From positions 37,537-101,536 of the forward strand of contig CAWAET010000020.1 in assembly GCA_963781065.1 (NCBI GenBank): a DNA stretch of 64,000 bases, in the 5' to 3' direction. The first letter of the stretch is position 1. Every line of letters starts with the position of its first letter. The DNA is from Thermoanaerobaculia bacterium. GTDB taxonomy: Bacteria > Acidobacteriota > Thermoanaerobaculia > Multivoradales > JAHEKO01. Positions 3,991 through 24,915 of the stretch are shown here, piece after piece. The notes beneath the pieces were generated by a model. It made no database searches and was not told where the DNA came from. It worked only from the letters and a program-made list of their open reading frames with translations. Both the position numbers and the translations under genes were made by a program.

Positions 3991-7191
<3,201 letters not shown>

Positions 7192-11307: not shown

Positions 11308-12024
11308 TCAGCCGCCCATCAGCTGCCGCCAGTCGTTCAGCGAGCGGATTCTGAGGTAGGCGTTCTGGCGCAGCTCGTCGCCGATCGTGGAAGTCTCGCT
11401 GGGGCCGTAGTTGTGCCCCGGGTAGAGCACCGTCTCGGGTGGCAGCTTGGCGAGCACCTGGGTCAGGCTGGAGTACATCGCCTCGGGGTCGCCGCCCGGC
11501 AGGTCGACGCGGCCGCAGCCCTGGACGAAGAGGGTGTCGCCGGCCACCAGCCGGTCGCCGACCAGGAAGCACTGGCTGCCCGGGGTATGCCCCGGCGTGT
11601 GGAGAAAGCGGATCGCCACCTCGCCGAGGTCGAGCCGGTCGCCACCCTCCATCCGCTTCAGGTCGCTCTCGGCGACCCCGGTCACCTGCTTGAGCCCGTC
11701 GGCCTCGTGCTTGTTGACGTACAGCGGCACGGCGTGGCTCTCGAGCAGCCGGGCGACGCCCTCGATCGACAGGCCGAACAGGTCGCCGCCGACGTGGTCC
11801 GGGTGGTAGTGGGTGATCAGGGCGCCGGCGATCTGATAGCCGTCCTCGTCGGCGACCGCGAGCAGGCTGGCCACGTCCCAGGCCGGGTCCACCACCAGCG
11901 CCCGGCGGCTGGCCGGGTCGCCGACGAGGTACATGAAGTTGGCCATCTGGCCGGCCACCGGGTTCTGGGTGGCGACCTGGCGGCCGGCGAGGAGCTGGCG
12001 GAAGTAGGGCGTTTCACTCATCAC
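11308..12024 (-). CDS. MBL-fold metallo-hydrolase (glyoxalase II-like)
   Basis: Motifs THYHPDHVGG, HTPGHTPGS, GDTLF and YPGHNY. An ATG at 12021 is one codon inside the GTG at 12024. The gene overlaps the glpD 3' end. Confidence 0.85.
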   Translation of the reverse strand: MMSETPYFRQLLAGRQVATQNPVAGQMANFMYLVGDPASRRALVVDPAWDVASLLAVADEDGYQIAGALITHYHPDHVGGDLFGLSIEGVARLLESHAVPLYVNKHEADGLKQVTGVAESDLKRMEGGDRLDLGEVAIRFLHTPGHTPGSQCFLVGDRLVAGDTLFVQGCGRVDLPGGDPEAMYSSLTQVLAKLPPETVLYPGHNYGPSETSTIGDELRQNAYLRIRSLNDWRQLMGG

Positions 12025-13672
12025 TGGAGGATAGCCGAGCCGGCGGCGGGTCCGGTAGCGCGCCGGCGGGCGACCAGGCCTCGACCGCGTCGAGGCAGGC
12101 GGCGGCCTGCCGCTCCCAGCGCCGGCCGTCCCAGCCGAGCTCCTCGCGGCAGACCGGCTCGAAGCGCGGCAGCAGGCCGGCGACCTCGTCGGGCCGCCAG
12201 AGGCCCAGCCGGACGCGCCGCAGCAGCAGGTCCTCGAGGCGGACGACGGCGGTGAGGCCGAGATGGGTCCGCAGCTCGGCGATCGACAGATCGTCGGTGC
12301 CCTCGATGGGCCGCAGCTCGCTCGCCGAGCGGGCCAGCCGCGGCGCCGTCCAGGCCAGCCCGCGCAGCCGGCGAGCCATCGCCGTCGCGGTCACCGCCGG
12401 CACCTCGGCGACGGTCTCGAGCCGCCGGGCGAGATCGGGCGGCGCCAGGCCGACCAGGGGAGTGCCGGCGGTCAGGCACGGCGCCGTTCGCCGGGCGGTC
12501 TCCTCCGGCAGGTAGTGGAGAGCCTCGTCGACCACCTCCTCGGCGGTCGGCCGCCAGGTGGTCAGCTTGCCGCCGGCCACCGACAGCAGGCCGTTCTCCT
12601 CCCACACCGCCTCCTCGCGGGAGGCCTCGGAGGGGTTGTCGGTGTGGCTGTCCAGGATCGGGCGCAGGCCGGCGAAGGCGCCCACGACGTCCGCCGCGAC
12701 GATGCCGTTGTCGGGAAAGTGGAAGGCCAGGGTGCGCAGCAGGTAGTCGATCTCGCCTCGGGTCGGCCGGGGATCGGTGAGCGAGCCGTCGTGGTAGATG
12801 TCGGTGGTGCCCGCCAGCACCCCCTCGGGATGGGGGATCACGAAGACCGGCCGGCCGTCGTCGGGCGCCGGCAGCGTCACCGCCGCCGTCACCGGCAGCC
12901 GGCCGGTCGGCAGCACGATGTGGGTGCCGCGTGAGGGGCGCACCATCGCGCCGCTGAAGCCGAAGCGCTTGCGCAGCCGGTCGACCCAGTGGCCGGTGGC
13001 GTTGACCACCAGTCCGGCTTCGACGGTGGCGGTCTTCTGGCTCTCGAGGTCGCGCAGCACGACGCCGTTGACGCGGCCGCCGAAGTCGGTGGTCGCCTCG
13101 AGCACGTCGGTGCGAGTCAACACCAGGCCGCCGTAGGCGAAGCCGGTGGCGGCCACCGCCAGGGTCAGCTGCGCGTCGTCGGCCATGGCGTCGGTGTAGG
13201 CCAGGGCGCGATCCAGGTCGTCGTCGCGCAGCCCCGGGGTCAGCCGACCGAGCTCGTCGCCGCTGAGGTGCGAGTGCTTCTCCGGCCGGTCGGTCAGCCG
13301 GTCGTACATCCACAGCCCCAGGTCGACCGTCCAGCCCGGCGTCCGGTCGCCCCGGTTCGCCGGATAGACGAAGCGGATCGGCCGCACCAGGTGGGGATTC
13401 AGCGACAGCATCCGGTCGCGCTCGCGGCAGGCCATCCGGGTGACCCGGAACTGCATCTGCTTGAGATAGCGCAGCCCGCCGTGGATCAGCTTGGACGACC
13501 GCGACGAGGTGCCGCTGGCGATGTCCTGGCGTTCCACCAGCAGCGCCCGCAGGCCGCGCTGCGCCGCGTCCATGAGCACGCCGCAGCCGGTGATGCCGCC
13601 GCCGACGATCACCAGGTCGAAGGGTTGCCCGAGCGCGCTCAGCGCCTGCTCTCGCCACTGTCGATGGAACAT
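12014..13672 (-). CDS. glpD: FAD-dependent glycerol-3-phosphate dehydrogenase
   Basis: The ATG is at 13670-13672. N-terminal FAD-binding fold DLVIVGGGITGCGVLMDAAQRG, followed by SGTSSRSSKLIHGGLRYL. Confidence 0.8.
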   Translation of the reverse strand: MFHRQWREQALSALGQPFDLVIVGGGITGCGVLMDAAQRGLRALLVERQDIASGTSSRSSKLIHGGLRYLKQMQFRVTRMACRERDRMLSLNPHLVRPIRFVYPANRGDRTPGWTVDLGLWMYDRLTDRPEKHSHLSGDELGRLTPGLRDDDLDRALAYTDAMADDAQLTLAVAATGFAYGGLVLTRTDVLEATTDFGGRVNGVVLRDLESQKTATVEAGLVVNATGHWVDRLRKRFGFSGAMVRPSRGTHIVLPTGRLPVTAAVTLPAPDDGRPVFVIPHPEGVLAGTTDIYHDGSLTDPRPTRGEIDYLLRTLAFHFPDNGIVAADVVGAFAGLRPILDSHTDNPSEASREEAVWEENGLLSVAGGKLTTWRPTAEEVVDEALHYLPEETARRTAPCLTAGTPLVGLAPPDLARRLETVAEVPAVTATAMARRLRGLAWTAPRLARSASELRPIEGTDDLSIAELRTHLGLTAVVRLEDLLLRRVRLGLWRPDEVAGLLPRFEPVCREELGWDGRRWERQAAACLDAVEAWSPAGALPDPPPARLSSSDE

Positions 13673-13787
13673 CCGCTCGCCTCCGATCGCTCGGCCGTTT
13701 GACGCCGCGGGACGGCTCTACCGCGGGCTCCCAGGATATCGCGAGCGGATGCCGGGGCGCTGTGGTAAGAAGAGCGCCGTGGGCAGG

Positions 13788-14150
13788 ATGAGCGCTAGCG
13801 ACGACGGGCCCGAGGTCTTCCGCGCCATCGCCGACCCGACCCGCCGGCGCCTGCTCGAGGCGTTGCGCGGCGGGCCGCTGTCGGTGAACCGGCTGGCCGA
13901 GGCCTTCCCGGTGAGCCGGCCGGCGATCTCGAAGCACCTGCGCTGTCTGCGCGAGGCCGGCCTGGTGAGCGAGGAGCGCCGGGGCCGCCGCCGCATCTAC
14001 CGGCTGCAGGCGCTGGCGCTGGCCGAGGTGCGCGGCTGGGTCGAGGGGTTCGCGCCTCCGGCCGAGCCGGCGCCGGCGCGCCGCGCCGGCCGGGGCCAGG
14101 CGCGGGCCGCCGGCCCGCCGGCCGAGCCGGGCAACTGGCGCGTCTGGTGA
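13788..14150 (+). CDS. ArsR/SmtB-family transcriptional regulator
   Basis: Internal ATG at 13788. Winged HTH: FRAIADPTRRRLLEALRGGPLSVNRLAEAFPVSRPAISKHLRCLREAGLV. An alternative ATG lies at 13749. Confidence 0.8.
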   Translation: MSASDDGPEVFRAIADPTRRRLLEALRGGPLSVNRLAEAFPVSRPAISKHLRCLREAGLVSEERRGRRRIYRLQALALAEVRGWVEGFAPPAEPAPARRAGRGQARAAGPPAEPGNWRVW

Positions 14151-14154
14151 CCGA

Positions 14155-15294
14155 CTACTTTTCCACGCTCTCGCGCACGATCTTCCAGCCGTCGGCCTCG
14201 CGCTCGAGCTCGAGCACCTTGCGCACCACGTCGCGGTAGCTGTCGGACTCGTAGGCCTGGACGAAACGCACCCGGCTCGAGTCGGCGCCGAGCTCCTCGA
14301 GCTCGACCAGGGCCAGGGCCACCTCGATCCGTTGGGGGGCCAGGACGCGGCCGCGGCGCCGGCGCTCCCAGCCGGCGCGATCGAGCCCGCCGTCGGGGGT
14401 GAAGCGGGCCGAATAGGCGTCGAGATAGTCGTCGACCCGCTGCTCGCTCCAGGCGCGGGCCCATTCGTCGACCAGCCGCAGCTGGGCCGGCCGGGTGGCG
14501 GGTGCGGCGTCGCGGCCGTTGGCGGCGGACTCGTTGGCCCCGGGCCCGTTGGCGCCGGGGGCGGCCTCGGCCTGCCGGGTGGCGATCGGCGCCGGGGCGG
14601 TTGCCGTCGCGTCCGCCGGCGGCCCCGCCCCGGACGGGGGCCACCAGAAGGCGGCAGCCAGGGCCGCGGCCAGGACCAGCGCCAGCAGGCCGGCCGGCAG
14701 CCGCCCGCCCAGGCGCCGCTTCACCGCCGACTCCGCCCGCCCGCCAGGCGGCGTCGTCGTCTGGCGGCCGGCCGCAGCCGCCGTGGGAGCGGTCGTCGCG
14801 GTCGCGCCGCCGGCGGCCGCGGTCGGCGCCGGCGGGCCGGCGGTGGGCCTGCCGGCTGTTGCCGGCGCCCGCTTGGCGACGCTCGTCTCGCCGGCCGCTG
14901 CCGCCACCGCGGGCGGCGGCTCGGTGTCATGCGTCGGGTCGCCCGAGGTGCCGCGCGCGGACGCCAGCTCGACGACGTGGCGACGGCACTCGTTGTCGAG
15001 CTCGACGAATCGCGTCCCCATGCCGGCCGGCTTCTCGGCGGTCTCGTCGCGGCGGCGCACCCAGGCGACCTGCGCCTTGCCGGTGATCGAGGGGCGGCCG
15101 CCGCCCGGCCGGAGCTCGAACTCGAACACCGAGCCCACCGGGTGGGGTCGGCGGGTGCGGATGAACATGCCGCCGGACGAGACGTTCGTCGCCAGCTCTT
15201 CGGTGAACTCCTCGAAGTGCTTGAAGCGCAGGGCGACGGGCCGGTCGAGGGCAGCCCGCTTCTGCTCGCCCGGTCGCGATTCCCGCCGGTCCAT
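14155..15294 (-). CDS. PilZ-domain protein with a transmembrane helix and a C-terminal NTF2-like domain
   Basis: The N-terminal PilZ pattern is RPVALRFKHFEEF...SSGGMFIRT. It is followed by a long Ala/Pro/Thr linker and a TM helix (LPAGLLALVLAAALAAAFWW). The C-terminal region is DEWARAWSEQRVDDYLDAYSARF...WKIVRE. Confidence 0.65.
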   Translation of the reverse strand: MDRRESRPGEQKRAALDRPVALRFKHFEEFTEELATNVSSGGMFIRTRRPHPVGSVFEFELRPGGGRPSITGKAQVAWVRRRDETAEKPAGMGTRFVELDNECRRHVVELASARGTSGDPTHDTEPPPAVAAAAGETSVAKRAPATAGRPTAGPPAPTAAAGGATATTAPTAAAAGRQTTTPPGGRAESAVKRRLGGRLPAGLLALVLAAALAAAFWWPPSGAGPPADATATAPAPIATRQAEAAPGANGPGANESAANGRDAAPATRPAQLRLVDEWARAWSEQRVDDYLDAYSARFTPDGGLDRAGWERRRRGRVLAPQRIEVALALVELEELGADSSRVRFVQAYESDSYRDVVRKVLELEREADGWKIVRESVEK

Positions 15295-15330
15295 GACGAG
15301 CGCGAGTCTACAACCGGCGCCGGTGGTCGG

Positions 15331-15373
15331 GGGCGGAAAGAAGGACCCCCCGCGAGCCGAAACCCGCGGGGGG
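15331..15373 (-). terminator. putative intrinsic terminator after paralogue P1
   Basis: On the minus strand: a 9-bp G/C stem (15346-15354 pairs with 15365-15373) followed by TCCTTCTTTCC. Confidence 0.4.
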
Positions 15374-15396
15374 TGAGGGCAGAGGAGGAGGGCGGG

Positions 15397-16023
15397 TTAG
15401 TTGTCCGCCGGCTGACGCCGGCGGCGGTCGAGGGAAACGTCGATGCACTCGTCGTCGTTCATGACCAGACAGAGGCGGATCGAGCCCTCGTTGTCGCAGA
15501 CCATGTTGAACTCGCCGAGGTCACCGGAGGTGGAGCGTGAGACCACCTGGTCGTCGGAGATGAGAAAGGCCGGCACGTTCGACACCGGGCCGAACTTGCG
15601 GTCCAGGATCTCGCCGCCGAGTTGCAGCATCTCGGTGCCCGCCTCGTACTCCAGCCGCAGGTCGAGCGCGTAGTTCTGCGCGTAGTAGACCAGGTGGCGG
15701 CTGTTGAGCTCGAGGGCACGGGTACCGGCCGGAGCGGGCTCCAGAAAACTGTCAAAGGCGAGCTGGAGGGCTAGGGATACCAGTTTTGGAGCCCGCTCCG
15801 GAAGGTGTATGGCAGACAGCGCCTTCACCGAGCGCATGGCGTGCTCGGGAAGCGGCTGCTGAAGATCGGTGCGGGCCAGGGTAACCACCCGCTCGAGCGC
15901 CTTCAGGGTGCGGCCGCAACGGGCGCACCCGGAGGCGAGGTGTTCGTCCATGTCGCCGCGCAATTCGTCCTGGATCAGGTTTCTCGCGTAGTCGGTCCAG
16001 TCTGCGATGTCGAAGTGGTTCAT
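15397..16023 (-). CDS. zinc-finger (HLASGCxRC) anti-sigma-like protein, paralogue P1
   Basis: 208 aa with an ATG start. The N-terminal motif is DEHLASGCARCGRTL. The C-terminal ~95-aa domain is shared with P2 and P3 (SRHLVYYAQNYALDLRL...GPVSNVPAFLISDDQVV...GEFNM...ECIDVSL). No TM segment. Confidence 0.65.
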   Translation of the reverse strand: MNHFDIADWTDYARNLIQDELRGDMDEHLASGCARCGRTLKALERVVTLARTDLQQPLPEHAMRSVKALSAIHLPERAPKLVSLALQLAFDSFLEPAPAGTRALELNSRHLVYYAQNYALDLRLEYEAGTEMLQLGGEILDRKFGPVSNVPAFLISDDQVVSRSTSGDLGEFNMVCDNEGSIRLCLVMNDDECIDVSLDRRRRQPADN

Positions 16024-16118
16024 GATCAGCCCTCTCGTTGCCTTTGCTCGGGTTCCTGGATGTCGCAGATCGTCGATTCCTTCGGTTCTGTCTTTATTAG
16101 TGTGTGGCGCGCGGCGTT

Positions 16119-16129
16119 TTGATATACCC
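16119..16129 (-). promoter_or_regulatory. conserved motif GGGTATATCAA upstream of P1
   Basis: AT-rich 11-mer 96 nt upstream of the P1 ATG. Near-identical copies lie upstream of P2 and P3. A CTGACG hexamer lies 16 nt upstream of the TATATC core. Confidence 0.3.
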
Positions 16130-16144
16130 GAGTCGCGGAGACCG

Positions 16145-16510
16145 TCAGCTCTCGGCGCTCGCCCGGGCGCCGGGGCCCATGGCGATGGGAAGGTCTATGC
16201 AGCGCTCGGCGTCGAGCAGCAGGCAAAGGCGCAGATCGACGCTACCGCCGGTCTCGAGTCGAAACTCTCCCCGCGGCCCCGTACGGTCGTAGCCGGTGAT
16301 CTGGTCGCCGGCCAGCAGGAAGGCCGGCACCTCGGCCACCGGGCCGTTGCCGCGGCTGAGCAGCTCTCCCCGCAGGACGTCGGGCTCGTGCTCCTGGGGC
16401 AGCAGCTGCAGGTCGACCGCGTACTCGCGGGACATATAGACCAGGTGGCGGTCGCTGTCGCGGCCGCCGCGGTGACCGCGGGGAAGATCGATCCGGGGCA
16501 TGCGGTTCAT
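16145..16510 (-). CDS. paralogue P2: C-terminal-domain-only member of the P1/P3 family
   Basis: 121 aa. It aligns to the C-terminal domains of P1 and P3 (DRHLVYMSREYAVDLQL...GPVAEVPAFLLAGDQIT...GEFRL...RCIDLPI). It lacks the zinc-finger N-terminus. Confidence 0.55.
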   Translation of the reverse strand: MNRMPRIDLPRGHRGGRDSDRHLVYMSREYAVDLQLLPQEHEPDVLRGELLSRGNGPVAEVPAFLLAGDQITGYDRTGPRGEFRLETGGSVDLRLCLLLDAERCIDLPIAMGPGARASAES

Positions 16511-16528
16511 CGTCGGGGCCTCGTCTTC

Positions 16529-16539
16529 TTGATATGACC
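16529..16539 (-). promoter_or_regulatory. conserved motif GGTCATATCAA upstream of P2
   Basis: Lies 19 nt upstream of the P2 ATG, abutting the HD-GYP stop codon. It is the third copy of the GG-NN-ATATCAA motif. Confidence 0.3.
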
Positions 16540-17235
16540 TCAGGCGGCCGGTTCGCGAATCTGCGCGATGTCGTCGACGTGCCGGGCGGCGAGCTCCAGA
16601 AAGTGGGCCAGAACCTCGGGGTCGAACTGGTGGCCGCCCTCCGGGCTGAGCTTCTCGAGCACGAGCTCGAGCGGCATGCCCTTGCGGTAGGGCCGGTCGG
16701 ACAGCATGGCGTCGAAGGTGTCGACCATGGCGACGATCCGCGCGCCCAGCGGGATCTCCTCGCCGCGCAGCCCGCTGGGATAGCCGCGGCCGTCCCAGCG
16801 CTCGTGGTGGTGCAGGACGAGCAGGCTGATGCGCTCGAAGCCGGGGATGTTGCGCAGGATCGCCCAGCCGTACTCCGAGTGCTTCTTGACGACCGTGTAC
16901 TCCTCGTCGGTCAGCCGGCCGGGCTTCAGCAGGATCTCGTTGGGCACGCCGATCTTGCCCACGTCGTGCAGCACCGAGGCCGTCTCCACGGCCTGCAGCT
17001 CCTTCTCCGGCAGGCCCATGCGCTCGGCCACCCGCACCGCCCAGGCGGCCAGGCGGGTCGCGTGCAGGCCGGTATCGAGCTCCTTGAGGTCGAGCAGCAT
17101 GCTCAGGGCGCAGATGATGCCCTTCTCGACGTGACGTTGGCGCTCCTCGAGGCGTTTGAGCTCGAGCGCCGGCCCCCTGGCCTCGGCCAGGTCGCGGGCA
17201 AAGAGAAACTCACCTGTCTGGTTGAAGTTCATCAT
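16540..17235 (-). CDS. stand-alone HD-GYP domain protein (c-di-GMP phosphodiesterase family)
   Basis: Internal ATG at 17235 (MMNFNQ). Motifs HDVGKIGVP, HHHERWDGRGYPSGL and DTFDAMLSDRPYRKG. No receiver or sensor domain. Confidence 0.85.
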   Translation of the reverse strand: MMNFNQTGEFLFARDLAEARGPALELKRLEERQRHVEKGIICALSMLLDLKELDTGLHATRLAAWAVRVAERMGLPEKELQAVETASVLHDVGKIGVPNEILLKPGRLTDEEYTVVKKHSEYGWAILRNIPGFERISLLVLHHHERWDGRGYPSGLRGEEIPLGARIVAMVDTFDAMLSDRPYRKGMPLELVLEKLSPEGGHQFDPEVLAHFLELAARHVDDIAQIREPAA

Positions 17236-17278
17236 CGTCTGCGGGTCGCGGGTGGCAATGTTCCGGCGCCGGCGCGGC

Positions 17279-17449
17279 TCAGGCCGCGCGGTCCTCGAGG
17301 ATGGCGGTGGTCGACTGGGCCACGGTGGCGGCGGCGTCGATAGACCGCTGGCAGTCGGCCCGCGACAGCCGCGAGACGCCGAGAGTGGCACCCAGCAGCG
17401 CCAGCGCGGTGAGCAGGATCGCCAGCAGGTTGCCTTGAGTCGTCTTCAT
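17279..17449 (-). CDS. unannotated 56-aa ORF with an N-terminal signal/TM segment
   Basis: Hand-translated as MKTTQGNLLAILLTALALLGATLGVSRLSRADCQRSIDAAATVAQSTTAILEDRAA. It begins 13 nt after the P3 stop and ends 43 nt before the HD-GYP start. It is below the 60-aa cutoff of the track. Confidence 0.4.
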   Translation of the reverse strand: MKTTQGNLLAILLTALALLGATLGVSRLSRADCQRSIDAAATVAQSTTAILEDRAA

Positions 17450-17462
17450 GGCCATTCCCCGT

Positions 17463-18164
17463 TCATTGGTCGGTGTCGGTGCGCCGGGTGAGGATCGCCA
17501 GCGGCCCGTCGGGCAGATCGGTGAGGTCGTCGCGCTCGAGCAGTACCGGTCGGGGCTCGCCCGGCTGGCGCCGGTCGAGCTCGACGTCGATCAGCTCGTC
17601 GTCGTTGACCACCAGCTGCAGGTGCATCGGGCCGAGCGGGCGGCACTCCATGTGGAACTCGCCGAGGCGGCCGGTGGTGGAGTGCGACACGACCCGGTCG
17701 CCGGAAACCAGATACGCCGGCACGTCGGACAGCGGGCCCCAGTCGCGGTTGAGCAGCTGGCCCACCACCACGACGTCGCGCACCGACCGCTCGAAGTCCA
17801 TCCGCAGGTCGAGGGCGAAGTTCTGCGAGTAGAAGACCAGGTGGCGGCTCGAGGCGTGCATGCTGCGAGCCCCGGCCAGGCCCGGACTGAGCAGGCTGTC
17901 GAACGAGAGGCGCATGTCGACCCGGCGCGTGGAGTGTCGGGGGCGGGCGAAGCCAGCGAGCGCCTTGACGGTTCGCAGCGCGCCGTCGGGTGGCAGCTGG
18001 GCGGCGTCGGAGTTGCCGACGCTGCGCACCCGGGCCAGAGCGCCGAACAGGGCGTTACAGCGCTGGCAGCCGGAGGCCAGGTGGCCGGTGACCCGCTGCC
18101 TGGTCTCTTCGTCGCCCTGGCCGAGCAGGTGGTCGGTCAGCTGATCGATGGTGGCGTGGCTCAA
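17463..18164 (-). CDS. zinc-finger (HLASGCxRC) anti-sigma-like protein, paralogue P3
   Basis: 233 aa with a TTG start at 18164. The N-terminal motif is GHLASGCQRCNALF. The shared C-terminal domain is SRHLVFYSQNFALDLRM...GPLSDVPAYLVSGDRVV...GEFHM...ELIDVEL. No TM segment. Confidence 0.65.
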   Translation of the reverse strand: MSHATIDQLTDHLLGQGDEETRQRVTGHLASGCQRCNALFGALARVRSVGNSDAAQLPPDGALRTVKALAGFARPRHSTRRVDMRLSFDSLLSPGLAGARSMHASSRHLVFYSQNFALDLRMDFERSVRDVVVVGQLLNRDWGPLSDVPAYLVSGDRVVSHSTTGRLGEFHMECRPLGPMHLQLVVNDDELIDVELDRRQPGEPRPVLLERDDLTDLPDGPLAILTRRTDTDQ

Positions 18165-18233
18165 AGGGTCGCTCCTGTCGGACGGCTTCGCGAAGATTGT
18201 CCGTCACCTGAATAGTGTCGGTGGGGGGGCTGG

Positions 18234-18244
18234 TTGATATACCC
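18234..18244 (-). promoter_or_regulatory. conserved motif GGGTATATCAA upstream of P3
   Basis: Lies 70 nt upstream of the P3 start, immediately after the CHAT-gene terminator T-run. Confidence 0.3.
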
Positions 18245-18250
18245 CGGGGC

Positions 18251-18282
18251 GAAGAAAAAGAGGCGGCCCGCCCCAAGCGGGC
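18251..18282 (-). terminator. putative intrinsic terminator after the TPR-CHAT gene
   Basis: On the minus strand: stem GCCCGC/GCGGGC (18266-18282, starting in the TAG stop) followed by CGCCTCTTTTTCTTC. Confidence 0.5.
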
Positions 18283-21194
18283 TACCCGGGGGCGCCGATG
18301 AGGCAGTAGGAGGCCCAGAAGAACGGGTGGGCATGGCGGCGACGCTGCGCCAGCTGGGCCTCGCGCAGGGCCACCACCGCCGGTCGATCGGCAAGCAGCG
18401 CGTAGAACTCGCCCAGAAACTGCCGGTGGGGCTCCGCCGCGTTGTGCCACAGGTCGATGACCAGCGAGCGGGCGCCGGCATAGAGCAGCCCGCGCGTCAG
18501 GCCCAGCAGGGCGTCGGCGTCGATGAGCGTGTCGAGGCCGGTGCTGCAGCCGGTGAGCATCACCAGGTCGGTCTCCAGCTCGAGGTTGTAGATGTCGAAC
18601 AGGGTCAGCCGCTCGCCGCCGAGCTCGAGCGCCGAGAACATCGGGTTGTCACGCCGGTAGTGAGCCCGCGTCGCCAGATGCAGCAGCCGCCGGCCGTGGG
18701 CCTCGCGCTCCAGCGCCGGCGCATCGAGGGCGCCGTCGAGCAGCAGACGGCTGCCGGGCAGCGCCGCGGCTACCGCGCGCGCCTCCCGCTCGGCCTCGGT
18801 CGGAACGCCGTCCTCGCCGGCCGGCACGCCGACCACCAGTGCCGGGCCGCCGCCGGCGGGCGGCTTGAGACGGCAGAGGTGGGCGACGCTGGCGCTGGGC
18901 GCGAGGGTCATCCGAAAGCGGTCGATCATGAAGTCGGTGCCGTCGAACAGGGCCTGGAAGGGCAGATGGTGGAGGAACCCATGGGGCACCACCAGCAGCT
19001 CGTCGTAGCGCAGCAGCCGCGGCCAGATCGGCGAGATCAGCTCGTCGAACAGCGCCGCCAGATGGTCCCGCGTGTCGCTGTCGACCGAGCCGCGGTGCAG
19101 GTCCGCGAACTCCGGCCCGAGCTGGAATCGCGACAGCTGGAACTGCAGCATGCGGTGCTGCTCGCGCGCCCGCGAGGCCATGGTCAGGGGCAGCATCTCG
19201 ACCGAGTCGGCGGCGATCACCGCCGCGTAGACGGCGCCGCGGGCGAAGAAGTACTCGACGATCGCCGTGTCGCCGGGCAGCGCCGCCTGGATCTCCTCGA
19301 GTGAGACCACGGTGGCCGACTGCAGCGAAGCCAGCTCGCGGTCGGTCGTCGCCAGCTCGTCGAGGGTGCGCGCCAGCTGCCGCTCCTTGCCGCGGCTGCG
19401 GCGGCGCATCTCGTCCAGGTGGCCGAGCGACTCCTCGCCGCGCGTCATCTGCCGCAGATCGATCTGACGGTAGTACCAGTTGAGCTCCTCGCGCAGCGTC
19501 CGGATGCTCTCCACCAGATTGCTGCGGGTGGCGGTCTTGGGCGGCAGCACGTGGGCCCTGAAGGCCATCAGGTCGGCCAGGCTGCGGGCCTTGGATTTCT
19601 CCATCGCCGCAAAGACCTCGGGGTGGTCTTCATCGCTCGGGACGTTCTGCAGGGCCAGCGCCACCAGCGCCTCGTAGACCCGCAGCTTGCTGGAGAAGAA
19701 GCCGAACTTGAGGTCGTCGGTCTGCAGGTGGCTGCGCAGGTGCTCGGCCTGCTCGCGGGCGTCACGGTAGGCGGCCAGCGCCTCCCGCCGCCGCTGGCCG
19801 GTCTCGAAGACCATGCCCAGCTGTAGCAGGGTCTCGAAGTGGAGCGACGAAGAGGGGTGCCGCTCGAGGTGCGCCAGCGCCGAGCGGCAGAGCCGTTCGG
19901 CCTCCTCGAGCTGGTCCTCGTCGAGGGCGATGCGCGCCATCAGCAGCTCGCAGGCGGCGGTCTTCGCCGGCAGGCCGAGGCGCTCGAAGCTCGCCGCCGA
20001 GCGCCGGGTGAGCGACGACGCCTCGTAGCTGCGGCCCTCGCGGTAGAGCAGCACCGCTTCGTAGAGGTCGATCTGTGCCGGCCAGACCTCGTTGGCCTCC
20101 TCGGCGAACAGGGCGCGGGCCTGGGCCAGGGCCTCGAGCGCCTTGAAGATGCGGCCCTGGCGGCTGATCGCCACGCCCAGGTTGGCCACCGCGCGGGCCG
20201 CCTCGTAGCGCACTCCGAGCCGATCGAAGGCCTTCCACGCCCAGTTGGCCAGCTCGGCCGCCTCTTCCACCATGTTGAGCTCGAGGAAGATCTCCGACAG
20301 GTCGAGGTCGCACAGCGCCTGGTGGCGCTCGTCGCCGGCCTCTTCGAACCGTTTCCGGCAGTCCCGGTAGAGGCGGATCGCGCGCGCGTAGTCGGCGGTG
20401 TGGTAGTGGAGATAGGCGATGTTGTAGTCGTTCTCGAGCCCCAGCCGGCCGAGGCCCTGCTCGTCGATCAGCCGTTTGGCTTCCAGGTAGCAGTCGAGCG
20501 CCTGCCGGGTGTGCGACAGGCTGATGTGGCAGGCGGCCATGTTGCGCAGGCAGATGGCGGCGTCGTGATCGCGGCCCGCGGCCCGGAACTCGACCAGGGC
20601 GCTTTCGTAGCGGTTCATCGCCTCCTGCCAGAGGTCCTGGCGGTGCAGCACGGTGCCGAAGTTGACCTCGAGCCGCGCCAGCCGCAGCCGGTCCCCCAGG
20701 CTCTCGAAGATCTGTCGTGCCGACTCGTGCCAGCGGTGGGCGCGCTCGTAGCCGCCGACGTCGATCAGGTTGTGCAGGGCGCTCGACAGCGTGATCGCCT
20801 CCTGCAGCCGGTCGCCGATCTGCCGGAAACGGCCGCGAGCGCTCTCGTAGGTCGTCTGGGCGTCGCCGTAGTCTCCCTTCTCGTGCCGCGTGTTGGCGGC
20901 GGCGCGCTCGGCGAGGCCGAGCGCGCGCTCGTCGCCGAGCCGCCCGGCCAGCCAGAGCGCCGCCTCGGCCAGCTCGGCGGCCCGCTCGAGGTCGTTGTCG
21001 AGCGCACTGCCGGCCAGCTTGCACAAGCGCGACACCGTCTCCGGCCGGCCCAGTCCGGCGTGGCGGTCCAGGTAGGGCGGCCGGTCGTCCGCCGGCAGCC
21101 GGCTGAACTCCTCGACGAGCCGGTCGGAGACGTCCGGGCCGGCGCTCAGGCCAGACCCTGCTTCTCGAGGCTTTTCTGGAGGCGTTTGAGACAC
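18282..21194 (-). CDS. TPR-repeat + CHAT-domain (caspase-like protease) protein
   Basis: The long N-terminal region has repeated TPR-like helices. The C-terminal CHAT region is VVPHGFLHHLPFQAL ... LLHLATRAHYRRDNPMFSALELGGERLTLFDIYNLELETDLVMLTGCSTG ... HPFFWASYCLIG. There is no ATG near the 5' end. A GTG at 21194 is proposed (overlapping the sigma gene by 49 nt), so the start is uncertain. Confidence 0.75.
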   Translation of the reverse strand: MSQTPPEKPREAGSGLSAGPDVSDRLVEEFSRLPADDRPPYLDRHAGLGRPETVSRLCKLAGSALDNDLERAAELAEAALWLAGRLGDERALGLAERAAANTRHEKGDYGDAQTTYESARGRFRQIGDRLQEAITLSSALHNLIDVGGYERAHRWHESARQIFESLGDRLRLARLEVNFGTVLHRQDLWQEAMNRYESALVEFRAAGRDHDAAICLRNMAACHISLSHTRQALDCYLEAKRLIDEQGLGRLGLENDYNIAYLHYHTADYARAIRLYRDCRKRFEEAGDERHQALCDLDLSEIFLELNMVEEAAELANWAWKAFDRLGVRYEAARAVANLGVAISRQGRIFKALEALAQARALFAEEANEVWPAQIDLYEAVLLYREGRSYEASSLTRRSAASFERLGLPAKTAACELLMARIALDEDQLEEAERLCRSALAHLERHPSSSLHFETLLQLGMVFETGQRRREALAAYRDAREQAEHLRSHLQTDDLKFGFFSSKLRVYEALVALALQNVPSDEDHPEVFAAMEKSKARSLADLMAFRAHVLPPKTATRSNLVESIRTLREELNWYYRQIDLRQMTRGEESLGHLDEMRRRSRGKERQLARTLDELATTDRELASLQSATVVSLEEIQAALPGDTAIVEYFFARGAVYAAVIAADSVEMLPLTMASRAREQHRMLQFQLSRFQLGPEFADLHRGSVDSDTRDHLAALFDELISPIWPRLLRYDELLVVPHGFLHHLPFQALFDGTDFMIDRFRMTLAPSASVAHLCRLKPPAGGGPALVVGVPAGEDGVPTEAEREARAVAAALPGSRLLLDGALDAPALEREAHGRRLLHLATRAHYRRDNPMFSALELGGERLTLFDIYNLELETDLVMLTGCSTGLDTLIDADALLGLTRGLLYAGARSLVIDLWHNAAEPHRQFLGEFYALLADRPAVVALREAQLAQRRRHAHPFFWASYCLIGAPG

Positions 21195-21760
21195 CGGCCC
21201 CTGATGAACCCGATCGACCCGATGGCCAGCCCGAGTTGCTGCGCCACCTCCCGATAGCGTAGCGGAGGTTGACTGTAGAAGAGCAGCTGGATCAGCTCCC
21301 GGCAGCGCTCGGGCAGGGTGAAGATCGCTTCGCGGACCATCTGGTCGCGCTCCATCTCGTCGAGCGAGACGGGCTCGACGGCGAGCCGGTCGTCGGATTC
21401 GAGGTTGGCGATCCCCGATCGGCGGATCGCCTCCCGCTGGTGCTGCTGGCGCCAGTGATAGCACTTGTGGCGCGTCACCGAGATCAGCCACGAGCGCACC
21501 GAGCCCTGCTTGCGCAGGCTGTCGAGCTGCTTGTAGACGTCGACCCATACCGTCTGGAACAGGTCGGCGGCTTCGTCGGGCGGCGCGCCGTACTTGATCG
21601 CGATCGAATAGACCAGGCTCTTGTACTTCTCGACCAGGATGCTCCAGGCGCGCTCGTCGCCGCTCAGGCAGGCACCCACCAGCCGCTGGTCGGACCAGCC
21701 GAGTTGCGGGCCGCCGGCCGACTGGCCGGGGTCGCCGAGGTCCGAAGGGGCGGCGCTCAC
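21146..21760 (-). CDS. ECF-type RNA polymerase sigma factor (sigma-70 family)
   Basis: Region 2 is AWSILVEKYKSLVYSIAIKY...DLFQTVWVDVYKQL. Region 4 is LPERCRELIQLLFYSQPPLRYREVAQQLGLAIGSIGFIRGRCLKRL. There is no in-frame ATG. The GTG at 21760 overlaps the solute-binding-protein stop (GTGA). Confidence 0.8.
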   Translation of the reverse strand: MSAAPSDLGDPGQSAGGPQLGWSDQRLVGACLSGDERAWSILVEKYKSLVYSIAIKYGAPPDEAADLFQTVWVDVYKQLDSLRKQGSVRSWLISVTRHKCYHWRQQHQREAIRRSGIANLESDDRLAVEPVSLDEMERDQMVREAIFTLPERCRELIQLLFYSQPPLRYREVAQQLGLAIGSIGFIRGRCLKRLQKSLEKQGLA

Positions 21761-23514
21761 GTCACCGGCTCCTGCCAGAAGAGCTCGTCCGCGTTCCACA
21801 GCGTGTAGGGCGCCATGACGGCGGGGCGGAAGTTGCCCAGCGTCCGTTTGGCGCCCGCCAGCACGTGCGGGCTGACCAGGAAGACGAGCGGCGCGTTCTC
21901 GGCCATGATGACCTGGACCCGGTCGAACAGGCGCTTGCGCTCGGCCCGGTCCATGACCGTGATCTGGCGGCGCATCAGGTCGTCGATCTCCGCCTCCCAG
22001 GCGGTGGCCGGCTCGGGCTCGCCCAGCCGCCAGAAATGCAGGCTGCCGCTCGACAGCAGAGTGGCGATCTGCGGATTGGGATCGGGGTCGCCGCCGCCCA
22101 GCTCCATCAGGCACACGTCGTAGTCCTTGCTGACGAGCAGCCGTTGGACGACAGCCCGGTGCTCCAGCGTCACCACCGAGACCTCGATGCCCAGCTGGCG
22201 CAGGTCCTCCTGGATCAGCGTCGCCGCCTGCACCCGCTGGCTGTTGCTGACGCTGGTGATGATCGAGAACTCCACCGGCTCGCCCGCCGGGTCGACCAGC
22301 CCCTCGTCGCGCCAGGCGAATCCGGCCTCCGCCAGCAGCCGGCGCGAGCGCTCGAGCGACCGCTCGGGCCGCGGCACGCGATCGTTGAACCAGTACTCGT
22401 AGCCCGGGCTGACGTTCGACCACAGCGGCGTGGCCCGATTGCGGTAGGCCAGGCGCGCGATCGCCTGCCGATCCACCGCCGCCGAGACGGCCTGGCGGAA
22501 CGGCTGCTGGCGGAACCAGCCCAGGCGGCGCTCGAGCCCGGCCGGCCCGTCGCCCGCGGCCGGGTTCTGGTTGAAGACCAGAAAGACGTAGTTGAGCCCG
22601 GCGCCCAGGTCCCGCACCTCGTACGGCGCCCGCTCGCCGCCGCGCTCGAGCTCGTTGAAGTTGCTCGGGCTGATGTTCTCGATGAGGTCGGTCTCGCCGG
22701 CCTTGAAGCGGATCACCTGGGCGTCCTCGCTGGCGACGAACAGCATCACCAGCTCGTCGAGATAGGGCAGCCGGCCGCCGCGCTCGTCGAGCTTCCAGTA
22801 GTGCGGGTTGCGTTCCAGCACCAGCCGTTCGCCCGACCGGTACTCGCGCAGGCGGAAGGCGCCGAGGCCGGAGATCTCGGCCGGCGCGGTCGCCGGCCCC
22901 CAGGTCTCCGCCAGCCGGCCCTGCTCGTAGGCCTCGGCCAGCAGGTGCCGCGGCAGGATCGCCAGGCCGTCGAAGATGCGCAGGCCGACCGCGACGGTCT
23001 CGGCGAACCGGAACTCCACCGTGTGCGAGTCGATCTTGCGCGGCTCGATCGGTTCGCCGCCGACCAGCAGCAGGTCGCGGCCGGGGTAGCCCACTTTCTC
23101 GTCGAGGTAGACGCGGAAGCTGAAGAGGACGTCGTCGGCGTCGAACGGCGCGCCGTCCGAGAACTTGACGTCGCGGCGCAGGTCCAGCCGGTAGGTCAGG
23201 CCGTCCTCGGAGATCTCCCACGAGCGGGCCAGCGCCGGCTCGACCTGCTGGGTCGAGCGGTTGATGTGCAGCAGATCGGCCATCAAGCGATGCACGACCA
23301 GCTGTGAAGGCGCGTCGACCGCGGTGATCGGGTTGAGGGTCTGCGGCTCGCCTCGCAGCGCCGTCACCAGCCGGCCGCCCGGGCGGGGCGTGGCGTCGAG
23401 CTCGACCGCGGGACCCGCCGCCGGGCGCTCGGAGCAGGCCGCGAGGAGGACCGTCGCCAGCACCCATGCCGGCGGGCGGAGCTTTGTTGGGTTTATATGC
23501 GAGCCCATTCTCAT
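21757..23514 (-). CDS. ABC-transporter family-5 solute-binding lipoprotein (peptide/nickel type), orphan
   Basis: Lipobox VLLAAC. The protein is DppA/OppA-like throughout (RLVTALRGEPQTLNP..., ...GAFRLREYRSGERLVLERNPHYW...). An ATG at 23514 or a TTG at 23523 could be the start. No permease or ATPase genes are adjacent. Confidence 0.8.
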   Translation of the reverse strand: MRMGSHINPTKLRPPAWVLATVLLAACSERPAAGPAVELDATPRPGGRLVTALRGEPQTLNPITAVDAPSQLVVHRLMADLLHINRSTQQVEPALARSWEISEDGLTYRLDLRRDVKFSDGAPFDADDVLFSFRVYLDEKVGYPGRDLLLVGGEPIEPRKIDSHTVEFRFAETVAVGLRIFDGLAILPRHLLAEAYEQGRLAETWGPATAPAEISGLGAFRLREYRSGERLVLERNPHYWKLDERGGRLPYLDELVMLFVASEDAQVIRFKAGETDLIENISPSNFNELERGGERAPYEVRDLGAGLNYVFLVFNQNPAAGDGPAGLERRLGWFRQQPFRQAVSAAVDRQAIARLAYRNRATPLWSNVSPGYEYWFNDRVPRPERSLERSRRLLAEAGFAWRDEGLVDPAGEPVEFSIITSVSNSQRVQAATLIQEDLRQLGIEVSVVTLEHRAVVQRLLVSKDYDVCLMELGGGDPDPNPQIATLLSSGSLHFWRLGEPEPATAWEAEIDDLMRRQITVMDRAERKRLFDRVQVIMAENAPLVFLVSPHVLAGAKRTLGNFRPAVMAPYTLWNADELFWQEPVT

Positions 23515-23598
23515 CTTTGACAATCCCAGGGATGAGCCGAGCGAGTCTACTCAACGCCGGGCGCCAAGGGAAATCGGCGAAAGCGGTAGAGTCGGCCG

Positions 23599-24915
23599 AT
23601 GGGACTGGCCGAGGACCTCAACCGCGACCTGGGCGACGAGGCGCCGGCGCTGGCGGCGGCACTGTCCGGGCTCGGCATCGCGGCGGCGTTCCCGCGCGAC
23701 ATTCCGCATCAGTCGGCCGAGGCGCGCGGCAAGCGGATCAACGCGACGATCGGCCAGGTCACCGACGGCGCCGGGGCGCCGCTGGCGCCGGCGTCGCTGC
23801 GCGCTGTCTTCGGCGGCCTGGCGCCGGCGGAGGCCGACCGGGCCATCCTCTACTCGCCGGTCGAGGGCCTCGCCGAGCTGCGCCGGCTGTGGCGCGAGCG
23901 GCTCGCGGTCGCCGCCACCACCCCGTTCACCCTGCCGCAGGTCACCGTCGGGCTGACCCACGGCCTGTCGCTGGTGGCCGATCTGTTCGCCGGCCCGGAC
24001 CGGCCGGTGGCGGTGGCGACGCCCTTCTGGGGCAACTACCGCCAGACCTTCGCCCTGCGGCGCGGCGCGCGGCTGCTGACCGGGCCGGCCTACCGCGACG
24101 GCCGCTTCAACCCCCACGCCATCGCCGAAGCGCTGGCCGGCGAGGAGCCCGGCCGGCCGGCGGTGGCGATCCTCAACTTCCCCTCCAACCCGGGCGGCTA
24201 CAGCCCGACCGCCGACGAGCGGCGGCAGCTGGTGGCGACCCTGCTGGAGGAGGCGGACCGCCGGCCGCTGGTGGTCATCCTCGACGATGCCTACGCCGGG
24301 CTGGTCTACGAGGAGGGCCTGCCTGCCGGCTCGCTGTTCTGGGAGCTGGCGGGACGGCACCCGAGCCTGGCGCCGATCAAGGTCGACGGCGCCACCAAGG
24401 AGATCAGCTTCTTTGGCGGCCGGGTGGGCTTTCTCACCTTCGCCCTGCCGCCCGAGGGGCGGGCGGCGGCGGCGCTGGAGAGCAAGCTCAAGTGCCTGCT
24501 GCGGGCGACGGTGGGCTCGCCGCCCGCGGTCTCCCAGGTGGCGCTGATCCGGGCGCTGGGCGAGGCGGCGACCGCGGGCCAGCTGGGCGATATCCGGCAG
24601 CGGCTGGCGGCGCGTTACCGGGTCCTGGCCGCCGCCCTGGCCGGAGTCGACCGCGAGCTGCTGGCGCCGCTGCCGTTCAACTCCGGCTGCTTCGCCCTGG
24701 TCGAGCTCAACGCGGCCCTGGGCCTCGAGGCCGAGGCGGTGCGGCGCGAGCTGCTGGACCGCCACGACACCGGCCTGATCGCCATCGCCCCGCGCTACCT
24801 GCGGATCGCCTTCTGCTCGGTTCGCCGGGCGGCCCTGCCGGTGCTGGTCGAGCGGCTGGAGACGGCCGTTCGCGACCTCGCCGGCCGGCCCGCGGCGGCT
24901 ACACCAGACCCTTGA
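23599..24915 (+). CDS. class I/II pyridoxal-phosphate aminotransferase
   Basis: 438 aa with an ATG start. Motifs NFPSNPGGY and the Lys region [21 protein letters not shown]. Confidence 0.75.

Follow-up and report, generated by a model that had tools for sequence, protein, structure and literature searches.

Genetic links between a sigma factor and a TPR-CHAT protein have been worked out in two defence contexts only, Craspase and DdvA (PMC10028731, PMC11506125). In the type III-E Craspase locus, gRAMP and the TPR-CHAT protein Csx29 occur together with Csx30, Csx31 and RpoE (PMC10028731, PMC9729208). The DdvA/DdvS pair of Myxococcus xanthus consists of a sigma factor of the extracytoplasmic function (ECF) type and one anti-sigma polypeptide, in which a zinc-binding anti-sigma (ZAS) domain is followed by a transmembrane (TM) segment and a periplasmic TPR-CHAT part; removal of the anti-sigma factor mediated by CHAT was proposed (PMC11506125). 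For group ECF54 of the Actinobacteria, the ECF54 passage of PMC8999054 (citing Casas-Pastor 2021 and Huang 2015) lists no recognised anti-sigma factor, describes neighbours with 'carboxypeptidase, subtilase and CHAT domains' and reports that proteolytic control has been proposed. Neighbourhoods of this type (CHAT, subtilase, 'carboxypeptidase') have been noted in surveys and have never been explained. Here we describe a related region of nine genes on a 64-kb stretch of contig CAWAET010000020.1 from a Thermoanaerobaculia bacterium (64,000 nucleotides, hereafter the window), in which an ECF sigma factor and a TPR-CHAT protein are encoded along with a family-5 solute-binding protein (SBP), three paralogues of an anti-sigma-like family termed P (P1, P2 and P3), a 58-aa open reading frame (ORF), an HD-GYP protein and a PilZ protein. 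Judged by gene content and synteny, this region descends, in a reduced and lineage-specific form, from a cassette that is widespread in Acidobacteriota.

For comparison, 29 related loci (numbered with the prefix L) from genomes and metagenomes were used. Named sources were metagenome-assembled genomes (MAGs) of Thermoanaerobaculia and Terriglobia-type Acidobacteriota, e.g. 'Candidatus Acidoferrum', and a scan of genome contigs with a 9-sequence alignment gave three short Thermoanaerobaculia contigs. The association of sigma factor, TPR-CHAT and zinc-finger protein, which the initial annotation had read from the window alone, was recovered in every related locus with enough flanking sequence except L005, down to P identities of 24-30%. 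The three genes stand together in L002, L015, L016, L018/19, L020-L027 and the frameshifted L001, and the CHAT gene abuts P in the short contigs L006, L011, L012, L014 and L017. According to synteny, the full cassette has two units. The first one comprises two ATP-binding cassette (ABC) ATPases, two Opp/Dpp-type permeases, the SBP, the ECF sigma factor and a cytoplasmic TPR-CHAT protein. The second one, which is preceded by its own bipartite motif, encodes P, a secreted subtilase with one to seven octapeptides and often an HD-GYP protein. A secreted Peptidase_S8 protein is encoded after P in L002-L004, L015 (two copies), L017, L018, L020-L025, L028 and L029. In roughly half of the loci (L002-L004, L015, L020, L023, L024, L028), P and the subtilase gene are in turn followed by one for HD-GYP. 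Permease, ATPase and subtilase genes are absent from the 64-kb window. Here, P has been duplicated into P3, P2 and P1, and a pilZ gene lies downstream. The genes pilZ, P1 and P2 are confined to the window-like clade (L001, L003, L006-L009, L026, L027). As to the coupling to cyclic di-GMP (c-di-GMP) genes that had been claimed for the region, the HD-GYP linkage is frequent but not universal, and the PilZ linkage is restricted to the Thermoanaerobaculia-like clade of the window.

In all six long distant loci (L020-L025), genes matching ABC_tran, two of BPD_transp_1 and one of SBP_bac_5 are located directly upstream of the sigma gene. The importer components of the relatives are of the Opp/Dpp/Nik type, and all matches of the SBP and importer components to NikA, DppA and OppA of NCBIfam remained under the curated cut-offs. 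The SBP of the window aligned to that of L020 with a phmmer E value of 4e-198 and is, by this similarity, the ortholog of the SBP belonging to the full ABC importer of related cassettes. The label 'orphan' given to it initially is therefore correct for the window lineage but not for the relatives, where the complete importer genes sit just upstream. The reported overlap of the GTG start codon of the sigma gene with the SBP stop codon was verified directly in the sequence as a shared GTGA. The sigma protein reached 88.6 bits with the sigma70-ECF model TIGR02937 (cut-off 42.9), while its Sigma70_r4 match (1e-4) fell slightly short of the Pfam gathering score. With regions sigma2 and sigma4, it is by its domains an ECF sigma factor (sigma-70 group 4). 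The ratios of non-synonymous to synonymous substitution rates (dN/dS) were 0.11-0.22 for the sigma gene against L026 and L027, and 0.30-0.33 for the SBP gene.

P1 and P3 share 45% identity, and P2 could be aligned only to their C-terminal half. At E <= 1e-3, an exhaustive search with a P-family profile matched at least 4,170 clusters (50% identity), 530 of them with E <= 1e-30; nearly all are 200-240 aa long and were matched end to end. Among 117 diverse members, H3, H28, C33 and C36 are nearly invariant. The spacing H28-x4-C33-x2-C36 is one residue longer than the canonical ZAS spacing H-x3-C-x2-C; 116 of 148 representatives have x4, 19 the canonical x3 and five x5. Ten of the 117 members reached zf-HC2 (best E 5e-7) and eight CarboxypepD_reg, while P1 and P3 themselves remained under the Pfam threshold for zf-HC2. 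An AlphaFold2 (AF2) model of P3 (mean confidence score pLDDT 77.5) shows a four-helix N-domain followed by a beta-sandwich. When the family profile was compared with the sequences of the PDB, the N-domains of RsiW, RslA and DdvA were among the top four matches, which were weak (E 0.04-0.4). Foldseek with the P3 model gave only generic Ig-like or beta-sandwich matches (E >= 8e-3, e.g. the FimC chaperone) and was uninformative on function. No TM segment was predicted in P1 and P3, and a TM-like stretch was detected in only 2 of the 148 representatives. These HHCC residues, the helical modelled N-domain and the family-level zf-HC2 and PDB matches are in line with the initial assignment of P1 and P3 as soluble anti-sigma-like proteins. 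At the level of the family, P can thus be described as a predicted soluble ZAS-like domain joined to a carboxypeptidase-regulatory-like sandwich, for which we infer an anti-sigma function. In L018/19, P directly follows the sigma gene (order sigma, P, CHAT). The dN/dS values were 0.16-0.31 for P1 and 0.36-0.41 for P3. Compared to L026, P2 of the window has lost the -10 half of the promoter-like motif and approximately 54 N-terminal codons, and appears from these deletions to be a decaying paralogue. A tiny P family had been suggested by word-indexed searches (37 matches for P3, 27 for P1), but this was overturned by the exhaustive profile search.

Neither a signal peptide nor a TM segment was predicted from the sequence of the TPR-CHAT protein. 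A profile of the cassette CHAT domains aligned to Scalindua Csx29 structures (Sb-Csx29, 7x8a_D) at E 1e-8, with the His of the family motif HIATHG on H585 and the Cys of SGC on C627 of Csx29. H585 and C627 form the documented catalytic His-Cys dyad of Sb-Csx29 (PMC9729208). Of the two catalytic residues proposed initially, the Cys within LTGCSTG was retained (C882, codon 18546-18548, aligned to C627), but not the candidate His within HLATRAHY: the residue aligned to H585 is an Arg (R842, codon 18666-18668), and the His further downstream varies. This site reads HLATRAHY in the window and L026, HLATRAHF in L027, HLATRACY in L001 and HLATRAVY in L006. The 11 other distinct relatives that contain this stretch (L002/L010 and L018/L019 each counted once) have ATHG or ATHA. 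The five loci with Arg in place of His are precisely those without the subtilase and with the 58-aa mini-ORF; as these five probably form one clade, the coincidence would be a single evolutionary event. The dN/dS of the CHAT gene (0.21-0.24 at dS 0.24-0.57) is comparable with that of the SBP gene and lower than that of P3, indicating that the gene is under purifying selection and not decaying. The window protein is probably a pseudo-protease. Because the position of the catalytic His is occupied by Arg, the cleavage of P1 and P3 by an active CHAT protease, as originally suggested for this genome, is doubtful, although it is plausible for the relatives bearing the His.

In the subtilases of the cassettes, the catalytic Asp (DTGVD) and His (GHGT) are separated by an insertion, in which one to seven copies of an octapeptide reside, often as perfect tandems; an additional copy is located at the predicted propeptide junction. 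The copies are nearly always identical within a locus and differ between loci: QSTTTILE in L002 (six copies), QSSTAILE in L003, QSTASILE in L004, QSTASILD in L028, QSSTSILD in L014, QASVAVLD in L015, QSTVE(L/I)LD in L017 and QHTAAMLD in L024. A single octapeptide (QSSVALVD, QSSAALVD or HST(I/V)AVLD) is present in L020-L023 and L025. Over approximately 320 kb of loci, a regular expression for the octapeptide matched in any frame only the subtilase gene or the mini-ORF. Its one match over the six frames of the window lies in the 58-aa ORF, which ends with ...VAQSTTAILEDRAA. This ORF occupies the slot of the subtilase, starts 7 nt past the stop codon of P3 and is preceded by a Shine-Dalgarno-like GGGGA sequence. 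Its N-terminus is hydrophobic (Kyte-Doolittle 2.3). Independent gene callers predicted the ORF in L001, L026 and L027, and the same feature exists in L006. While signal peptide and linker diverge, the C-terminus (A/T)QST(T/S)AILE(D/G)R(A/S)A is nearly invariant; its 13 residues are conserved through synonymous changes over four loci. Between the window and L027, the 12 codons for QST(T/S)AILEDRAA differ by six synonymous changes and one conservative replacement. Because the C-terminus was kept through synonymous changes and the ORF is called in relatives, we consider it a real gene, which by its sequence encodes a small secreted protein. The conserved part of the predicted product corresponds to the motif which relatives embed in the subtilase. 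On the DNA level, tandem 24-nt repeats coding for identical octapeptides were seen in the subtilase genes of L002 (10266-10419), L003, L004, L014, L015, L017, L024, L028 and L029.

A scan for standard sigma-70 promoters gave one weak match, upstream of the HD-GYP gene, and missed a bipartite AT-rich motif that was found by comparing upstream regions. This motif is located 5' of every P gene. In the window-like clade it has the form GGTATATCAA-N15-ACACTAWT and in distant loci CCTATATTTTT-N~14-CCCTTATA. A loose regular expression for it matched 31 times in 707 kb; 30 of the 31 matches were located shortly upstream of P3, P2, P1 or a gene for a cyclic nucleotide monophosphate (cNMP)-binding protein, on the coding strand. 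Judged by this distribution, it is a promoter or an operator and moves together with the cassette, and we infer that the cassette sigma factor reads it. The cNMP-binding gene is inserted between CHAT and P in three loci (L021:7986-8672, L022:8074-8811, L025:7920-8693), and in L021 and L022 it has its own copy of the motif upstream. A second element, CG(G)TTnnGTA(G/C)ACT (GTTnnGTAsACT), is present on the minus strand upstream of the SBP/sigma operon (23530-23560) and of pilZ (15300-15320), and has been retained in L026, L027, L005 and L001. Possibly, the SBP/sigma and pilZ units share it as a promoter, of the sigma-70 or the ECF type.

The arrangement of the region is given in Table 1. ORF translations and Pfam placed the nine genes, all of them on the minus strand, at the positions and with the domains stated in the initial annotation, and hairpins were found at both sites where it had claimed terminators, after CHAT and after P1. 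The HD-GYP protein contains an HD_5 domain, and both the HD and the HHExxDGxGYP-type motifs were found in its translation. The sequence that carries the nine genes has a G+C content of 70-74%.

Table 1. Genes and sequence elements of the cassette region (positions refer to the window).
Feature	Position	Strand	Evidence
SBP_bac_5 family-5 solute-binding lipoprotein	21757-23523	-	Pfam SBP_bac_5 3e-80; lipobox LLAAC
ECF sigma factor, 204 aa	21146-21760	-	Sigma70_r2 5e-15; Sigma70_r4 1e-4; TIGR02937 3e-25
TPR-CHAT protein, 970 aa, GTG start	18282-21194	-	Pfam CHAT 2.8e-45 (258 residues); TPR_12 7e-22
Intrinsic-terminator-like hairpin 3' of the TPR-CHAT gene	18260-18282	-	
Bipartite promoter-/operator-like motif 5' of P3	18211-18243	-	GGTATATCAA-N15-ACACTATT
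P3, 233 aa, predicted ZAS-like N-domain, CarboxypepD_reg-like beta-sandwich and disordered tail	17463-18164	-	Alignments, AF2 model; no Pfam match
58-aa ORF, putative secreted mini-precursor with signal peptide, variable linker and conserved C-terminal AQSTTAILEDRAA	17279-17455	-	
Octapeptide QSTTAILE inside the 58-aa ORF	17294-17317	-	
Stand-alone HD-GYP, predicted c-di-GMP phosphodiesterase	16540-17232	-	HD_5 1e-41; motifs LHDVGK and HHHERWDGRGYP
P2, 121 aa, predicted beta-sandwich (C-terminal) domain only	16145-16510	-	
Second copy of the bipartite motif, 5' of P1	16096-16128	-	GGTATATCAA-N15-ACACTAAT
P1, 208 aa, full-length paralogue with predicted ZAS-like domain and beta-sandwich	15397-16023	-	
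Intrinsic-terminator-like hairpin 3' of P1, strong, 13-bp stem	15345-15374	-	
PilZ protein with hydrophobic (TM-like) stretch and Cds6_C (NTF2-like) domain	14155-15294	-	PilZ 1.7e-9; Cds6_C 7.6e-12; TIGR02266 1.2e-20

On one side, the cassette is flanked by genes for a metallo-beta-lactamase-fold protein (11308-12024), an FAD-dependent (flavin adenine dinucleotide) oxidoreductase resembling glycerol-3-phosphate dehydrogenase (12014-13672) and an ArsR/HTH_20 regulator (13491-14150), and on the other side by an aminotransferase gene (23599-24915, plus strand). These flanking genes are syntenic in L001, L026 and L027 and seemingly unrelated to the cassette. In some distant cassettes, a PAS-GAF histidine kinase (L018:9592-11445) or a response regulator (L015:12993-13832, in the locus with the second subtilase copy) is encoded at the cassette end, either replacing HD-GYP or supplementing it. 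In L025:14460-18630, genes for a Prim-Pol/D5 primase, an AlpA-like protein and a phage-type integrase adjoin the cassette, which may there border on an integrated element. Around the other loci, the neighbouring genes are unrelated and of the housekeeping kind. Searches of plasmids gave no match for P1, and CHAT matches only in unrelated contexts (Streptomyces, Paraburkholderia, cyanobacteria).

Taken together, we tentatively read the region as a reduced, lineage-specific derivative of a conserved signalling cassette of Acidobacteriota that senses imported peptides, an interpretation to which we give slightly less than an even chance. According to this model, P would hold the ECF sigma factor inactive. 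A peptide that stems from the secreted protein with the motif, or from proteolysis by this protein, would enter the cell via the SBP and the importer and would be sensed by the TPR array of the TPR-CHAT protein. The latter would then remove P, through cleavage where the His-Cys dyad is intact. The freed sigma factor would drive the second unit. Additional P would provide negative feedback and additional signal positive feedback, and the HD-GYP protein produced would lower c-di-GMP. An imported peptide is proposed as input because the SBP, the 58-aa ORF and, in relatives, the secreted subtilase and the Opp-type importer share one cassette. Because the genes are under purifying selection, the TPR-CHAT protein of the window would be expected to act as a non-catalytic sensor or scaffold, maybe sequestering P3, with P1 as the main partner of the sigma factor. 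The latter role of P1 fits L005, a Thermoanaerobaculia MAG locus that retained sigma and P1 after the loss of CHAT through P2.

A more specific version is that the octapeptides themselves are dedicated autoinducers. They would be released from the subtilase arrays or the 58-aa precursor, re-imported and sensed by TPR-CHAT, whereupon the anti-sigma factor would be removed, the sigma factor freed and c-di-GMP reset. We regard this version as rather unlikely. If it is true, diderm soil bacteria would possess a quorum-sensing logic like that of RRNPP systems, in which a protease serves as receptor, and the window clade would be a pseudo-protease variant of it.

Several points weigh against the model of imported-peptide sensing. 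Every mechanistic arrow is drawn from gene order and domain identity. The octapeptide could be an autoprocessing or autoinhibitory loop of the subtilase, given the copy at the propeptide junction and the many subtilases with a single copy, and L018/19 have the triad and the subtilase but no octapeptide motif. For the P proteins of the window, the anti-sigma evidence is weak (sub-threshold in Pfam and NCBIfam, PDB profile E 0.04-0.4). The bipartite motif is unlike the usual AAC/CGT boxes of ECF promoters and could be the operator of another regulator. Family-5 SBPs also bind nickel and metallophores, and with the importer core missing in the window, uptake would need permeases encoded elsewhere. 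Finally, the link between the loss of the subtilase and the His-to-Arg change rests on one clade and hence on a single event.

The alternative that survives best is a nutrient regulon, in which the sigma factor would control the subtilase and the peptide importer for scavenging. The octapeptide would then be an autoprocessing or autoinhibitory site, TPR-CHAT and P would report the general peptide flux, and the 58-aa ORF would be a leftover with some unrelated role. The co-occurrence of a protease and an Opp-type importer is consistent with feeding, as are the motif copy at the predicted propeptide/mature junction, the single copies in the Asp-His loop of many subtilases and the existence of L018/19, which work without any motif. 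Selection has, however, kept the motif in five loci without an adjacent subtilase, where it stands in a separate secreted mini-ORF. Arrays of identical tandem units, with differences from lineage to lineage, were also judged to exceed what an autoprocessing site needs, and HD-GYP and PilZ as outputs suggest a switch of lifestyle rather than feeding. We therefore deem a nutrient regulon possible but on the unlikely side.

Less probable is the circuit proposed in the initial annotation, a Cas-free analogue of Craspase/Csx30/RpoE, in which an active TPR-CHAT protease of the window cleaves P1 and P3 and frees the sigma factor. The conserved triad, the retained Cys and CHAT fold signature and the purifying selection agree with it, and in the window, L026 and L027 a non-canonical His is found two residues downstream. 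Cys and Val take the place of this His in L001 and L006, and Arg replaces the H585-aligned residue in 5/5 loci of the clade. The upstream His (LHLA) corresponds to Thr in Csx29 and was judged too far along the strand to substitute. Moreover, L005 lost CHAT and P3 but kept sigma and P1. Overall, we consider an active protease in the window improbable.

It is also conceivable that the window contains a decaying relic, i.e. a copy that stopped signalling once importer core, subtilase and catalytic His were lost, and that is heading to the state of L005. Progressive losses are indeed apparent. In addition to the lost promoter box and coding part of P2, P2 as a whole is missing in L001, and by blastn L005 consists of SBP, sigma, about 60 nt of CHAT, the P3 promoter, two fragments of P3 and P1 (scars at 4091-4577). 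L005, which is syntenic with the window on the aminotransferase side, thus lacks CHAT, the mini-ORF, HD-GYP, P2 and most of P3. However, no reading frame is disrupted in the window, L026 or L027, and dN/dS ranged from 0.05 to 0.48 for all genes (dS up to 0.6), with 0.05 for HD-GYP and 0.21-0.24 for CHAT. The mini-ORF motif and both promoter motifs were maintained as well. A relic is accordingly a little less credible still than an active protease. On the long-read-type metagenome contig L001 (4610-9900), both SBP and CHAT are broken up into several frames, which probably reflects assembly frameshifts and not pseudogenes, given that L026 and L027 have intact copies.

ZAS domains can be redox sensors, as established for RsrA-type factors, and a stress or defence module might accordingly be imagined, in which the CHAT-sigma pair answers phage, envelope or oxidative stress via the zinc site of P, while transporter and subtilase belong to the regulon. 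Although both characterised sigma-CHAT systems are defence-linked (PMC11506125, PMC10028731), this is the least likely alternative, with PADLOC giving no significant match beyond generic TPR, HD and subtilase, the neighbours being housekeeping genes that vary by locus (only L025 lies beside an integrase and a primase), and the cassette containing no cas, CBASS (cyclic oligonucleotide-based antiphage signalling system) or toxin-like effector gene. The claim that the region lacks a cas context held for the Pfam-annotated flanks of the 13 loci with gene tables, in none of which a cas gene was found; the window was not exhaustively searched for Cas proteins. A repeat scan disclosed no CRISPR-like array in the 64-kb window, and there were zero matches to Rfam families.

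The module is old and large in Acidobacteriota, its P family numbering at least 4,170 clusters at 50% identity. An Opp-type importer and a secreted protein with a diversifying octapeptide are tied to it, and in one clade the TPR-CHAT protein has been kept under selection after the loss of the catalytic His. In the literature searched, the importer linkage, the octapeptide subtilase and its replacement by a mini-precursor, the promoter-like motif and the selected pseudo-protease state appear to be undescribed. The imported-peptide model is testable with synthetic peptides and would illustrate how soil bacteria, abundant but little studied, might perceive peptides and link this to c-di-GMP. Furthermore, the loci provide a natural pair of an active and a pseudo-protease for dissecting the role of the CHAT domain.

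In RRNPP systems (Rap/Phr, NprR/NprX, PlcR/PapR), a secreted precursor yields a C-terminal mature peptide, which is taken up by an Opp-type importer and recognised by a cytoplasmic TPR receptor. The cassette resembles them in logic only: the 58-aa ORF of the window has the layout of a precursor, and a family-5 SBP/importer and a TPR protein are on the parts list. The similarity of the TPR-CHAT protein to RRNPP receptors is just that of TPRs in general (RapJ E 5.6e-5 within a TPR-wide match list). In contrast to RRNPP systems, the putative receptor is fused to CHAT and would act via an anti-sigma/sigma pair, the host belongs to the diderm Acidobacteriota and the peptide units are inside a subtilase in most relatives.

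As in Craspase, a cytoplasmic TPR-CHAT protein is linked to an ECF-type sigma factor and a putative sigma-inhibiting partner, and the CHAT domains align (E 1e-8). However, no gRAMP, cas gene or CRISPR array was found with the cassette, and a target RNA cannot be the activator. The partner protein, ZAS-like and about 210-235 aa long, is not Csx30, the cassette adds importer, subtilase and HD-GYP, and the CHAT protein of the window scored 25.8 bits with the NCBIfam Csx29 model (cut-off 300). Craspase, the analogue named at first, is a reasonable choice for the family, but DdvA/DdvS (PMC11506125) and the ECF54 neighbourhood (PMC8999054) are closer precedents.

In the region as in DdvA/DdvS, an ECF sigma factor goes together with a TPR-CHAT module and an anti-sigma N-domain that binds zinc, here a predicted one, and the P-family profile weakly matches the structure of the DdvA N-domain (8rlz, E 0.39). 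It differs in that the predicted ZAS-like protein and the TPR-CHAT protein are separate, soluble and cytoplasmic, with no TM segment or signal peptide in either of them. Moreover, the ZAS-like protein has a beta-sandwich, the putative regulon is not a CBASS/CRISPR island, and DdvA keeps the His-Cys dyad, whereas the CHAT domain of the window has lost the His.

The neighbourhood described for ECF54 closely matches the gene content of the relatives, as far as the published description of it can be compared. The sigma genes of the relatives are adjacent to genes for TPR-CHAT, Peptidase_S8 and P, and 8/117 P-family members match CarboxypepD_reg. The differences concern the phylum, which is Acidobacteriota here, the lack of a subtilase in the window and the fact that the 'carboxypeptidase' protein has a predicted ZAS-like N-domain. 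This N-domain, the importer, the octapeptide and HD-GYP do not figure in the ECF54 description given in PMC8999054. We regard the cassette as a variant of an ECF control module that so far has only been predicted. The carboxypeptidase-domain protein of our cassettes is most likely the missing anti-sigma factor. If ECF54 and the modules presented here are the same, then the 'carboxypeptidase' protein of ECF54 would be an overlooked anti-sigma factor.

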